Below are positions 6,615-57,324 of a stretch of 64,000 nt of DNA, piece after piece. A model generated the notes under the pieces. That model was not told the DNA's origin and ran no database searches. It saw only the letters and a program-made list of their open reading frames with translations. Position numbers and translations under genes: made by a program. Source of the stretch: Microcoleus sp. (GTDB lineage Bacteria > Cyanobacteriota > Cyanobacteriia > Cyanobacteriales > Microcoleaceae); contig JAYFMW010000028.1 in NCBI GenBank assembly GCA_042408215.1, positions 320,001-384,000 on the forward strand. The letters run 5' to 3'. Numbering within the stretch: position 1 is the first letter of the stretch; each line of letters begins with the position of its first letter.

Positions 6615-6922
6615 GTGACAAGTGGGGCGGGACCTGTTCCTCACTATAAAACGCCGTAGAGGGAAACGATGGGAGTACCTTGAAGGAAGATCTTGATATC
6701 CACAGGCGGGACTCAGATGCCTACAACATACCGCTTGCGGTTGGTGTAGGAGCGTCACCGCTTGAACCTCGACGGAATGTCTTGTACTGACAAGCGCTAT
6801 TTTACCACGCCAAAACACTGTGTTCACATGATTCGGCACGATCGGTAAATCAAGGCTGGATTTATCCTGCAACTACCTGTCATCCCTGGACTCAATTCGA
6901 GGGGGTTTTCAGGCTATTCTTG
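6615..6922 (-). mobile_element. Non-autonomous ORF-less IS200/IS605-like mini-element
   Basis: Minus strand: left-end-like CAAGAATAGCCTGAAAACCCCC...GGGATGA, TGGTAAAAT extended -10, non-coding body, terminus TGTCAC. Confidence 0.55.
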
Positions 6923-6930
6923 ATAATTTA

Positions 6931-7096
6931 TACCAGTTTTTTATGAGGCCCCGTAGAATCTGATCCCCCCTAACCCCCCTTAATAAGGGGGGAACAAGAT
7001 TCTGCTCTTTCGTCACCCCCTACTCACACCCTACTCCCTTATTAAGGGGGATGCGAGGGGGATCGAGATATATGCAACGACCCATTAAATTGGTAT
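6931..7096 (+). mobile_element. 166-bp IS630-type MITE (TACCA...TGGTAT, TA flanks)
   Basis: Near-identical inverted copy at 43371-43536; related copy at 21439-21596; ends resemble the IS630 end at 60223. Confidence 0.85.
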
Positions 7097-7210
7097 TACT
7101 GGTTAATAATGCCAATTTACGAAGAAATCGCAGCGGTCAAGCGGTTGAAGATTTGAGACTCCTGCTCATGGTACGATGGAGGTGCGTAGAAATCACCAGA
7201 GTCGGCTGGT

Positions 7211-7520
7211 TTGACACTCCTCGACCTTAAGGCACGAGGATTCTTAAGACATTTCAGTCTTAATATCCCTATTTCTAGGGTTCCTTTCGCTGACCACGTT
7301 TGCACAAAAATGTGTGTAGTCAGATCTCCTCAAAAGTGTTTTGGGCGTATACTTTCCCCCAGTCCAGGGGTAGGTTTTTAAATCTTGTCTGATGCCCTTA
7401 CTATACCACACAGGGGTGGGTGCGTGGATATGTCTACCCAACTCCATGCGGATTTCTGACGGAGCAGGAGTCGTAGAAAAAGCCATCCTATAAGGACGGG
7501 GTTTTCAACCCAATTTTCTG
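7211..7520 (-). mobile_element. Non-autonomous ORF-less IS200/IS605 mini-element
   Basis: Right end AAGAATCCTCGTGCCTTAAGGTCGAGGAGTGTCAA differs by one base from the tnpB element end at about 55613-55647; left-end hairpin CCCCGTCCTTATAGGATGG resembles 54280-54300. Confidence 0.85.
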
Positions 7521-7623
7521 ATAAATTCCCCCTGTTGTCGATCGGGCGCTCCGTGCATCGTGCCTGAGTTTCGCAAGTCAAGTTTAAGATCACCCGCCTC
7601 TGCAAGCAGTTGAGTTCCTAGCC

Positions 7624-7959
7624 ATGCCCCTCAAGGATTCCAGCGCCTTTCCCGAAAATTTTCCAGACCCGAAACTTCCTGCCGCCATTGAGGTAGACGA
7701 AATGCTGACCAGGATTAAGCATTCTCACGGTCATTACTACAAAGTGATGAATCTTGAGGTTTGGGCGCTTGTGGAAACGCTCGATCAGCTATTTCCGGGC
7801 GCTTGGGGTCGCTTCATGGCTAACCGCCAGCTTGCGGTGAAACAGTTTTTGCAGCGCAAGGGCGATCTCAAAGGTTCAGTTGAAGCTGAGGATGTGGAGG
7901 AGAAGGAAGAAGCAAGAAGCAAGAAGCAAGAAGCAAGAAGCAAGAAGCAAGAAGAATAA
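7624..7959 (+). CDS. Hypothetical protein; C-terminus runs into an AAGCAAG heptamer repeat
   Basis: 111-aa ORF with plausible composition (WALVETLDQLFPGAWGRFMANRQ). Confidence 0.65.
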   Translation: MPLKDSSAFPENFPDPKLPAAIEVDEMLTRIKHSHGHYYKVMNLEVWALVETLDQLFPGAWGRFMANRQLAVKQFLQRKGDLKGSVEAEDVEEKEEARSKKQEARSKKQEE

Positions 7960-53723: not shown

Positions 53724-54244
53724 GAAGCTCCTGATACGTTGGGAAACTCAGTCACGAAGAGTGCTGAGAGTAAAAAATTGCCTAGGGACTTGAGTCGCCT
53801 AACTCTTTCAAAGGGAGATCGTTTGTTGTACAATAATTGTAGATCAGTTTTTATTAGCCTTAGATGCAGACCAGATCTGTCAAATGCAAGCTTCAAGTCC
53901 CTAAAGAGTTGCGTCAAGATATTGACATTACCCTTGAGCGGTTTGCTGACGCTTGCAATCAGATTCTTGACGTTGCAAAAGAGGCTAAACAATGGAACAG
54001 GACCAAGTTGCATCACCGGCAAAGGGAAGAGTTATCGCAACGGGAAGAAGTTCAAGTGTGGGCACTGCGGATTTGAACATGATGCTGATGTAAATGCGGC
54101 TAAAAATATAGCTGCTTTGGGGTTGTCCGTAAGCCAGCCCGAAAGTCCGGGGATGACGTGCCAACTACAAGGTCAATTGGCTTGGTTCGGTGGTACGTTC
54201 GATCGGGGCTGAAGCTCAGTCACAAAGGGTGCTGAGTTGCTTAC
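53722..54244 (+). mobile_element. tnpB: IS200/IS605 element with internally deleted tnpB
   Basis: Hairpin CTCAGTCAC-n5-GTGCTGAG near both ends; TnpB N-terminus (MQTRSVKCKL) joined out of frame to zinc ribbon/RuvC-III (FKCGHCG..DADVNAAKNI). Confidence 0.85.
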
Positions 54245-55647
54245 CAAAAAAAATGGGCGGAGCGAAGCGCAGGGCTAAAGCCCCGTCCTTTTAGGACGGC
54301 TTTAATTTCAACCATAAAGCGTAAAGAATTGTGAAATAAGCATATTTTATGGGTGTAGTGATTTGTCAATGTGATACCATAATTGCATGATAGTAATAGA
54401 GTTCAAGTTGAAAGGCAAAACACAGCAATACCGGGTCATCGACGAAATGATCCGCACATCGCAATTTGTCCGAAATAAAACTCTTAAATACTGGATCGAC
54501 AATCAAGGAGTTAAACTATCCCACCTCTACAAACAATGCGCCATTATGGCAAAAGAGTTTGAATGGGCAGGCAAACTTAACTCGATGGCACGTCAAGCCT
54601 CGGCTGAACGTGCCATTTTTGCTATCCAACGTTTTTTCGCTAATTGTAAAGCTAAAAAACCCGAAAAAAAAGGCTACCCAGTATTCAAAAAACACACTCG
54701 TTCCGTAGAATACAAGACATCAGGATGGGCGCTTTATGCCGCTCAAAGATGCCTCACCTTTAAGGACGGTTTGGCTGCTGGGACGTTTAAATTAATTGGT
54801 AGTCGGGATTGGCATTTCTATGCGCCCGATGAGATTAAACGAGTTAGGGTTGTACGGCGTGCCGACGGCTATTTCGCTCAGTTTTGCATCAATGGGTCGC
54901 GGAGGGAGGGATCTATTCCAACTGGTAAAGCTATTGGAATAGATGTCGGATTAAACCATTTTTATACCGACAGCGATGGTAGCACAGTTCCCAACCCTCG
55001 ACATCTTCGCAAAAGCGAAAAAGCGTTGAAGAGGTTGCAGAAACGAGTTTCTCGAAAGAAGAAAGGTTCTAGCAATCGTAAAAAAGCGATTAACAAGTTG
55101 GGAAGGAAACACTTGAGGGTCAGCAGGCAGCCCATTCGAATACGCGAGCGGGTAAACTCCAAGACTTCGCCATAAAGACGGCGTTGTGCGCGGTAAAATC
55201 TAGCGATTTTGTAGCCTAGGTCGAGCTTCAGGTGAAGAATATGGTTAAGAACCACAAGCTTGCCAAATCAATTAGTGACGCAGCTTGGAATCAGTTTGCT
55301 GTCGGGCTGCAATACTTTGGGAAAGTGTACAGGAAAACAGTAATCGCTGTTGCTCCTCAGTACACTTCTCAAGATTGCTCAGTCTGTGGCAATACTGTTA
55401 AAAAATCGCTGTCAATTAGAACTCATGCTTGCGGCAGCGGTGCGGTATTAGATCGAGATCTTAACGCCGCGATCAACATTTTGGCTAAGGGATTGAAAGC
55501 CCGTGCAGGAATCACTTTAAATACGGTGGGGCACACCGAAATTAACGCTTGGGGACAGACCGATCTCTACTCGTTGGTGGCAGCATCAACCAGCAAATCG
55601 ACTGATTGAACCAAGAATCCTCGTGCCTTCAGGTCGAGGAGTGTCAA
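54245..55647 (+). mobile_element. tnpB: IS200/IS605 (IS1341-like) element with frameshifted tnpB pseudogene (54387-55609)
   Basis: GIDVGL RuvC-I, zinc ribbon, DRDLNAAINI; small insertion near 55130 and TAG near 55216; left-end hairpin near 54280, right end ...GAGTGTCAA. Confidence 0.92.
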
Positions 55648-55734: not shown

Positions 55735-57324
55735 ATGACAACGATAAAAATCGACATGAATGAAATTAGTCAAACGGTGCAACCAGAAGGAATGGTAAGG
55801 GCCGGAGTTCAAAAAATTCGCACCATGATAGAGGGCTTTGACGACATCAGTCATGGCGGGATGCCGATCGGCAGAACTACCTTAGTCAGCGGCACGTCGG
55901 GAACGGGAAAAACCTTATTTGCCGTACAATTCCTCTACAACGGAATCACCCATTTTGACGAAGCTGGAGTCTTCGTAACTTTTGAAGAATCTCCAACAGA
56001 TATTATTAAAAATGCTTGTAGTTTCGGCTGGGATTTAACCAAGTTAATTGATGAAGGTAAGCTGTTTATTTTAGACGCTTCCCCCGATCCTGAAGGTCAG
56101 GATATCGTGGGAAATTTTGATTTATCAGCCCTGATCGAACGAATTCAATACGCAATTCGCAAGTACAAAGCAAAGCGGGTTTCTATAGATTCGGTGACAG
56201 CAGTATTTCAGCAGTACGACGCTGCATCGGTGGTGCGACGAGAGATTTTTCGTTTAGTTGCTCGCCTCAAACAAGTAGGGGCAACTACAGTCATGACTAC
56301 CGAACGGGTGGAAGAATACGGCCCGGTGGCCCGGTTTGGAGTGGAGGAGTTTGTGTCGGACAACGTGGTGATTGTTCGCAACGTTTTGGAAGGAGAACGC
56401 CGCCGCCGGACTCTGGAAATTTTGAAGTTGCGAGGTACAACTCACATGAAAGGTGAGTATCCTTTTACCATTACTAATGACGGGATTAATATTTTTCCCT
56501 TGGGGGCGATGCGATTGACTCAAAGATCTTCTAATGTTCGGGTTTCTTCCGGGGACAAAACTCTCGACGAAATGTGCGGCGGCGGTTTCTTTAAGGACTC
56601 GATTATTTTGGCTACGGGTGCGACGGGAACTGGCAAAACGCTGTTGGTAAGCAAGTTTTTGGAGAATGCTTGCATGAATGGCGATCGGGCCATGCTGTTT
56701 GCTTATGAAGAGTCGCGGGCGCAGTTGTTCCGCAATGCTTATTCTTGGGGCATTGATTTTGAGGAAATGGAACATAAAGGTCTGTTAAAAATTCTTTGTA
56801 ATTACCCGGAATCTGCTGGTTTGGAAGACCATTTGCAAAATATTAAATCAGAAATTGCTGATTTTAAACCGTCTCGAATTGCGATCGATTCCCTGTCAGC
56901 TTTAGAACGGGGAGTTAGCAATAATTCATTCCGGCAATTTGTGATCGGGGTGACTGCTTTCGCCAAGCAGGAGGAAATTACAGGCTTTTTCACGAATACA
57001 AGCGATCAGTTTATGGGTTCTAATTCGATTACGGATTCCCATATTTCTACGATTACTGACACGATCATCATGCTTCAGTATGTGGAAATTCGAGGGGAAA
57101 TGTCGCGGGCAATTAATGTGTTTAAGATGCGCGGTTCCTGGCACGACAAGGGAATTCGGGAATACACTATTACTGATAAGGGGCCGGTAATTCGGGATTC
57201 TTTCCGCAGTTACGAACGGATTATCAGTGGTTGTCCGACTCGAATTACAATTAATGAGAAGAGTGAATTATCGCGGATTCTTAAGGGTGTGCAAGGTCAA
57301 GACAATGACGATGACGATATTTAA
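55735..57324 (+). CDS. kaiC: Circadian clock protein KaiC
   Basis: Two RecA-like domains (GTSGTGKT, GATGTGKT), DSHISTITD phosphosites. Confidence 0.98.
   Translation: MTTIKIDMNEISQTVQPEGMVRAGVQKIRTMIEGFDDISHGGMPIGRTTLVSGTSGTGKTLFAVQFLYNGITHFDEAGVFVTFEESPTDIIKNACSFGWDLTKLIDEGKLFILDASPDPEGQDIVGNFDLSALIERIQYAIRKYKAKRVSIDSVTAVFQQYDAASVVRREIFRLVARLKQVGATTVMTTERVEEYGPVARFGVEEFVSDNVVIVRNVLEGERRRRTLEILKLRGTTHMKGEYPFTITNDGINIFPLGAMRLTQRSSNVRVSSGDKTLDEMCGGGFFKDSIILATGATGTGKTLLVSKFLENACMNGDRAMLFAYEESRAQLFRNAYSWGIDFEEMEHKGLLKILCNYPESAGLEDHLQNIKSEIADFKPSRIAIDSLSALERGVSNNSFRQFVIGVTAFAKQEEITGFFTNTSDQFMGSNSITDSHISTITDTIIMLQYVEIRGEMSRAINVFKMRGSWHDKGIREYTITDKGPVIRDSFRSYERIISGCPTRITINEKSELSRILKGVQGQDNDDDDI

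Follow-up and report, generated by a model that had tools for sequence, protein, structure and literature searches.

A protein-less IS200/IS605-type element with a predicted TnpB guide-RNA gene in a Microcoleus chromosome

The locus and the limits of cassette B

The window (the whole 64,000-nucleotide stretch of Microcoleus sp. DNA that was analysed) is a piece of cyanobacterial chromosome, with KaiC encoded at 55750-56400 as identified by Pfam. Cassette B is located between a PP2C phosphatase gene on the minus strand (6351-4045) and a small gene at 7624-7956, for which a Pfam search returned no family. It is a 310-base element occupying positions 7211-7520 on the minus strand, exactly as delimited in a preliminary description made from the DNA letters. 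Reading along the minus strand, TTTAT is followed from 7520 by CAGAAAATTGGG, and the element then runs up to GGAGTGTCAA, ending at 7211 (Table 1). Subterminal hairpins are found at both ends, the right one at 7239-7219, and there are no terminal inverted repeats. A blastx comparison with all genome ORFs of at least 60 aa detected no TnpB remnant inside the element, its own copies being the only matches. That is, cassette B is a protein-less IS200/IS605-type element, a PATE-type derivative. The preliminary description had seen an ORF-less IS605-type cassette with a guide-RNA module at its right end, a left end placed after TTTAT and an interior devoid of tnpB coding remnants, and it was right on all of these points.

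Table 1. Features of cassette B and its surroundings, and the RNA-library contigs that bridge its right end (window coordinates)
Feature	Position	Strand	Remark
TTTAT target / transposon-adjacent motif	7521..7525	-	directly 5' of the left end
Left end with subterminal hairpin CCGTCCTTATAGGATGG (7499-7483), then CTTTTTC	7480..7520	-	
Subfamily-1-specific leader	7411..7479	-	element positions 50-115 matched by subfamily-1 copies only
Extended -10 box TGG TATAGT, predicted promoter	7400..7408	-	no -35 match
Predicted omega-RNA scaffold, ~183 nt	7211..7393	-	start near 7393 predicted from the -10 box
Right end: AAGAATCC, hairpin CCTCGTGCCTTAAGGTCGAGG, then AGTGTCAA	7211..7245	-	
Predicted guide ACCAGCCGACTCTGGTGATT	7191..7210	-	flanking DNA, outside the element
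Junction-bridging RNA-library contig X1	7096..7262		
Junction-bridging RNA-library contig X2	7096..7259		
Junction-bridging RNA-library contig X3	7067..7272		
Junction-bridging RNA-library contig X7	7161..7407		
Junction-bridging RNA-library contig X9	7021..7264		
Junction-bridging RNA-library contig X12	7056..7259		

The right end, from AAGAATCC to GGAGTGTCAA, is equal at 34 of 35 bases to positions 55613-55647 of a tnpB element in the same window, the sole difference being an A versus a C in the hairpin loop, and a 29-nt pattern made from it matched twice in the window and never in 100 shuffles. The left-end hairpin likewise has a similar counterpart there (CCGTCCTTTTAGGACGG at 54283-54299). 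Both likenesses had been pointed out beforehand and were confirmed. The tnpB at 54389-55609 with which the cassette had then been compared was rejected as a partner, however, as it is broken, belongs to another family and has only the last 35 nt in common with cassette B. Its open frame consists of the last 129 codons only, and the element it is part of, in the region 53860-55647, lies between kaiC and a kaiB-like reading frame, the one frame tried of the latter giving no Pfam match; the segment at 53860-54215 is a deletion derivative of another tnpB, made up of a short N-terminus and a C-terminus.

The hairpin CCTCGTGCCTTAAGGTCGAGG at the right end of cassette B is of the type found in a TnpB family of ~400 residues, the remaining full or near-full copies of its own subfamily carrying CCTCGGGCCTGTATGCCGAGG in its place. 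Judging by the sequences, this mismatch looks like a mosaic, or like an exchange of end sequences between families. The left end is common to more than 60 other places in the genome at 80-98% identity, and its hairpin, taken together with the CTTTTTC that follows, looks like an intrinsic terminator in sequence.

An 80-codon ORF (7486-7244) would make cassette B the carrier of a small protein gene as cargo. The frame is open in the window and in the copy on contig C8, but this amounts to two of the five full copies, as it is shifted in the C5 and C6 copies and broken in the C17 copy; it is also absent from subfamilies 2 and 3, which are without the subfamily-1 leader, and its translation matched no family in a Pfam search. 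We therefore regard a cargo gene as extremely improbable. With Rfam 15, only tRNA was found in the whole window at gathering scores, and the region 6700-7700 gave no match at E <= 1. A further repeat lies on the PP2C side of the cassette, namely a 168-base element (6928-7095) of an abundant family of the CCCCTTAATAAGGGG type, for which a single 25-base bin can have up to ~480 blastn matches in the genome. Contigs from two public sequencing runs join 6927 directly to 7096, indicating that this repeat is absent in another strain.

Genomic copies and the insertion site

The 315-base query, TTTAT included, gave 166 blastn matches in the window's own 7.36-Mb genome (hereafter G000). Five of these are full-length copies of what we call subfamily 1, at 93.7-100% identity (on contigs C28, C8, C17, C5 and C6), and two are 5'-truncated copies of the same subfamily, starting at element position 85 (C11) and 99 (C6). 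Subfamily 2 has four copies at 73-87% identity (C14, C30 and two on C20), and subfamily 3 has two at 70-71%. The subfamilies are mutually 70-80% alike, and all have in common ~185 bases running from CATCAGACAAGATTTAAAAACC to TGTCAA. Well over a hundred short matches concern the left or the right end alone, these ends being common to many TnpB families of G000.

To survey the insertion site, the 115-base flank following the right end was searched in 41 genomes of the genus, 25 of which matched. The site is occupied in G000 and empty in G005 and G008, in which the flank is 100% identical; cassette B is likewise missing from its place in 22 further species, at 72-79% flank identity. The empty site of G005 and G008 reads GGGGGAATTTATATTTATTTAT/ACCAGCC, and the occupied one TTTAT/element/ACCAGCC. 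That is, comparison of occupied and empty sites places the insertion on the 3' side of a short fixed target that was not duplicated. Among 55 left-end copies in G000 the target logo is TTTAT, with counts from position -5 to -1 of T 34, T 51, T 37, A 50 and T 43. As the site is empty in two close relatives, the insertion of cassette B is recent, and the dispersed mobile family proposed in the preliminary description is thereby borne out, movement included. Compared with the occupied site, the two empty sites (L083 and L084) carry ATTTATTTAT, 10 extra bases of (A)TTTAT repeat, upstream of the insertion point (7521-7535), a length difference that is probably due to slippage of the TTTAT repeat.

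The conserved body: homology, structure and promoter-like box

A covariance model, R1, was made using only the 13 ORF-less copies and then searched against the genome; its E-values are rough because calibration was shortened, which leaves the bit scores unaffected. R1 matches cassette B over 7397-7211 with 223.6 bits, and 15 ORF-less places in G000 at 112-228 bits. It also matches the 3' ends of two intact tnpB ORFs of the 459-residue type on other contigs, at C6:578647-578834 (105.8 bits) and C5:673881-674068 (82.1 bits), both matches covering model positions 1-188, whereas all other matches, including the right ends of the ~400-residue TnpB family, score 39.7 bits or less. In all 15 ORF-less copies and both tnpB elements the match ends exactly at TGTCAA. 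The C6 tnpB gene spans 478 codons from stop to stop; counted from a TTG start, it encodes 459 residues and occupies C6:578717-580093. Over 63 bases, its right end and the cassette are 92% identical, and its 3' coding end has in common with the cassette body a hairpin with a GGACT loop followed by GAAA, the stem itself being replaced (CGCGG/CCGCG versus CCCC/GGGG), as well as the blocks GCAAACGTGGT.AG..GGGAAC and the run AATAGGGATATTAAGACCGAAATGTCTTAAGAATCC. Three subfamily-2 copies even retain the context of the tnpB stop codon, GGGAACTAAGCG. Since R1 matches the tnpB 3' ends of this lineage over its full length and those of other families at no more than 39.7 bits, sequence homology identifies the interior of cassette B as the omega-RNA scaffold of the 459-residue TnpB lineage. 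The distinct RNA body that the preliminary description had suspected is thus homologous, in sequence and in structure, to the 3' end of that tnpB.

The RNA predicted for the window copy, guide included (7393-7191), folds at -59.6 kcal/mol compared to a shuffle mean of -46.0 (z = -3.34), none of 200 shuffles being as low. The structure was then assessed in an alignment (A3) of 45 model matches from 46 sources out of 111 loci, leaving aside L001-L030 and L047, which duplicate G000 places. Paired cells amount to 93.4% over the 45 sequences, against 39.7-44.3% when the partners are slid by 1-3 columns, and 21 of the 38 pairs have changed on both sides; the covariation score reaches 0.226, compared with 0.041-0.071 after sliding. 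None of 500 shuffles reached the observed pairing or covariation, a control that overstates the support because most of the sequences are close kin. As seen in this alignment, which was fitted to the model and thereby favours the structure, the secondary structure has been kept through compensatory changes, so that the covariation across copies proposed earlier as a check was indeed found. The changes affect interior helices 4, 5, 6 and 7 (4/5, 4/7, 2/3 and 3/7 pairs, respectively) and helix 8, the right-end hairpin, in which six of the eight modelled pairs have changed on both sides and which is also a DNA signal for TnpA. An additional hairpin outside the model goes from CCCUA..UAGGG through CCUGA..UCAGG to CCC.CG..CG.GGG between subfamilies.

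Upstream of the body, the box TGTGGTATAGT (7410-7400, minus strand) lies ~190 nt from the right end. The pattern TGnTAnnnT stands at a fixed distance upstream of the conserved body in 32 of 44 rows, the rows being supplied by the window copy, by 14 further copies in G000 and by 29 of 30 loci in related genomes (L047, a duplicate of a G000 copy, was left out, as were L066 and two tnpB elements, which offered no anchor). Rows that miss the pattern mostly differ from it by one base (TAGTAGAAT, GGGTAGAAT, TGGGAGAAT), the stretch separating box and body is variable, and both 5'-truncated copies have lost the box. Lacking a -35 match, it was missed by a consensus sigma-70 scan; what speaks for a promoter is the extended -10 form together with its conservation, and on these grounds the box is likely to be the element's own promoter. 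The preliminary description had seen this box as aimed at the right end, which agrees with its conservation as a promoter-like box. In subfamily 2, ~45 bases of leader after the left end can be aligned with the 5' leader of the tnpB element, which fits, at the sequence level, an origin by internal deletion of the ORF. A blastn search of G000 with the subfamily-1 leader (7411-7479) gave no match outside the family, and its origin was not found.

These observations bear on the alternative that cassette B is a passive relic, spread only through ends recognised by TnpA, in which case scaffold and box would be leftovers of the deletion and the RNA would have no role. The youth of the G000 copies, at 93.7-100% identity, is in keeping with such a relic. 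Yet subfamilies that are only 70-80% alike have kept the helices, with both sides changed in more than half of the pairs, and the -10 box has stayed at one place in most rows; moreover, to judge from work on IS608, TnpA is not known to need the interior helices, helices 4 and 5 included. All in all we consider a passive relic unlikely.

Part of the stretch is present in 20 public sequencing runs, eight of which were examined, all as assembled contigs. Contigs from six RNA libraries belonging to six studies bridge the junction between the right end and its flank with 0-1 other letters (Table 1). RNA libraries can hold DNA, and run X16, whose kind is not stated and which is probably DNA, contains the same piece (7071-7259) with a break at 7401 like that of RNA run X9. 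The contig ends near 7394-7407 coincide with the point at which the subfamilies diverge and are therefore uninformative on the start of a transcript.

Guides, partners in trans and a fixed relative before the PP2C gene

The guide following TGTCAA is ACCAGCCGACTCTGGTGATT (7210-7191), as correctly predicted in the preliminary description. Its first 16 nt have a single exact match in the genome, namely the element's own flank; there are no sites with one mismatch and two with two mismatches, neither of them behind ..TAT. For the guides of the 14 ORF-less copies (first 16 nt) the own flank is again the sole exact match, except for one more in the case of C11, and the genome search found no site with fewer than two mismatches behind ..TAT. 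The 13 other ORF-less copies yielded two hits with two mismatches behind ..TAT, which is chance level. Apart from repeats, no second target with up to one mismatch was found in the genome, and none behind the TAM. Guides that match their own flank only would fit a role in homing in trans, not one in regulation in trans.

The use of a nuclease-dead TnpB envisaged in the preliminary description thus found no second TAM-flanked target with up to one mismatch, repeats aside. In such a scheme, similar to that of TldR, the guide RNA would program a nuclease-dead TnpB relative at a host promoter. A guide-RNA gene with its own promoter and without a neighbouring nuclease gene would suit it, as would the 102 TnpB-like ORFs of at least 330 aa in the genome. 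Against it, the cassette B guide has no second site at 0-1 mismatches and none behind ..TAT at up to two, the other ORF-less copies behave likewise save for the two chance-level hits, no TnpB-like gene was found within 3 kb of cassette B, and the insertion is missing from the closest relatives. The two features looked for as marks of a TldR-type system, a TnpB-like ORF within 3 kb and a second target, were thus both absent, and we hold this reading to be very improbable. The TldR guide RNAs described in the available part of Wiegand et al. (PMC10705468) resemble that of cassette B in being omega-type guides that serve something other than a neighbouring transposon gene; cassette B differs from them in having no adjacent tldR, in being mobile and recently inserted, and in carrying a guide without a second target.

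The 459-residue TnpB encoded on C6 contains the Pfam domains HTH_OrfB_IS605, OrfB_IS605 and Cas12f1-like_TNB, and matches an ISDra2-like solved chain at E = 7e-31 and ISDra2 TnpB itself at 7e-29. Its DLG, EDLN and HAD motifs, which we take to hold the catalytic residues, align at the expected columns. Nineteen Y1_Tnp matches above the Pfam cut-off are present in G000. Proximity to cassette-type ends did not reveal a cognate tnpA: among 14 tnpA genes only one has such a left end nearby, and this gene lies outside the element. At C6:578430-580224 (L077), an intact element encoding the 459-residue TnpB is directly followed by a 5'-truncated subfamily-1 cassette (positions 99-315), and the guide of this tnpB element is therefore internal cassette sequence; its 16-mer recurs exactly in two other cassettes, behind ACATAT, which is a misfit to the TTTAT logo.

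We favour, as moderately probable, the reading of cassette B as a protein-less IS200/IS605 mini-transposon, inserted after TTTAT, that makes from its own promoter an omega RNA of the 459-residue TnpB, used in trans to re-cut the site that the element has vacated. Transcription would begin at the extended -10 box, near 7393, and continue past the right end into the flanking DNA, so that the RNA would consist of scaffold and guide. As the ORF is gone, this RNA could not be cut from a tnpB mRNA and would need a start of its own; the left-end hairpin with its T-run may stop incoming transcription and so shield the element, and an internal promoter may have been kept because that hairpin would stop transcription from outside. 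The RNA would be loaded in trans onto TnpB from the two full elements. A Y1 TnpA made elsewhere would excise the cassette as single-stranded DNA, TnpB with the cassette RNA would cut the rejoined TTTAT/ACCAGCC site, and recombination with a sister copy would restore the cassette.

This homing scheme is that of Meers et al. (preprint PMC10055086), who report, in the part of the preprint available, that PATEs often encode omega RNAs used in trans. Like cassette B, the PATE-like elements of Geobacillus stearothermophilus described there have no protein gene, have ends in common with tnpB elements and carry at the right end an omega RNA for a TnpB acting in trans, mobilisation by TnpA in trans being predicted in our case. 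Compared with what that portion of the preprint says of the Geobacillus elements, cassette B differs in its cyanobacterial host, in the 459-residue TnpB lineage of its scaffold, in being known here from sequence alone, and in the conserved extended -10 box directly before the scaffold. According to Nety et al. (PMC10278001, available in part), the RNA of TnpB elements is produced from the tnpB mRNA. As in the ISDra2-type tnpB-only elements treated in that part of the paper, the scaffold of cassette B stops at the right end, the flank provides the guide and the TAM is the insertion target; its homology to a tnpB 3' end recalls their overlapping omega RNA, and it is unlike them in that the ORF is gone.

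Elements of this kind have thus been described already, and cassette B is a well-documented example. It is a clean natural case of a TnpB guide RNA parting from its nuclease gene, in which the ORF has been deleted while the ends, the scaffold and the start signal appear to have been kept under selection across a cyanobacterial genus. As such it supports a modular, trans-acting view of these transposons and leaves the picture of how such systems work unchanged. The locus further provides a compact scaffold and a TTTAT TAM for pairing with the 459-residue TnpB.

A search at E <= 1e-80 detected members of the 459-residue clade (paralogues down to ~45% identity) in 25 of 41 genus genomes, among them G000. 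R1 matches occur in all 36 genus genomes searched and in seven of 24 genomes from other families of the order, and at the best R1 locus, looked at in 30 genomes, the RNA never has a tnpB of the clade beside it. In 15 of the 36 genus genomes with R1 matches, the search at E <= 1e-80 detected no member of the clade, and seven of these 15 have strong RNA matches (E < 1e-25; G008, G015, G020, G024, G026, G027 and G028, with G008 and G020 being only 83-84% complete). This could suggest, from the distribution of sequences, that some cassettes may be without a TnpB partner, and it counts in favour of the passive relic considered above. In G020, several contigs carry at least eight near-identical R1 matches of 125-127 bases at 79-83 bits, suggestive of a shortened form of this scaffold that has multiplied greatly in a genome (84% complete) in which the 459-residue clade was not found.

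In each of the 22 distant species without cassette B at its site there is a sister element ~226 bases further on, in the orientation of cassette B, with a degenerate left end, a TGGTAGACT or TGGTAAACT box and a scaffold scoring 93-135 bits with R1. Its right end lies 86 bases before the PP2C start codon, and the eight copies that were aligned have one guide in common. This guide was not found in the window's genome with up to four mismatches, and the loci compared in G005 and G008 gave no sister-element match. Seven of the 22 copies (L086-L107) are split by a further insertion, which again speaks for a passive relic. In the 14 species with an unbroken copy, to which the conservation count was restricted (eight species with split or partial copies being left out), the scaffold and the leader that follows are 92-99% conserved per 30-base bin, and the intergenic DNA before the element is 78-97% conserved. 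In at least four of the 22 species no cognate TnpB was found. It is a tentative and rather doubtful possibility that guide-RNA genes outnumber and outlive their nuclease, and that the sister before the PP2C gene has been adopted by the host as a fixed guide RNA or as promoter and leader for PP2C. We nevertheless see in this element the most intriguing by-product of the analysis, and the sole part of it able to lead to something new.

The sister element also bears on a different reading of cassette B, as a mobile promoter whose chief effect is outward transcription into neighbouring genes, in the window toward the PP2C gene. The minus strand has no terminator-like site from the right end of cassette B to 6700, and the fixed sister stands in the same orientation at a short distance before the PP2C start codon in the 22 relatives. 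Cassette B itself, however, lies 860 nt from the PP2C gene with other repeats in between, and the selection on scaffold helices would be left unexplained by a promoter role, so that we judge a mobile promoter to be quite unlikely. What bears on it in the window is a relic of the sister at 6926-6776 on the minus strand, 92% identical to a subfamily-3 copy (of the C17:133534 type), in which the left end, a TAAAAT box extended by TG and 17 bases from the start of the scaffold are all that remains; that is, the left end and the promoter have survived there despite the deletion of the scaffold.
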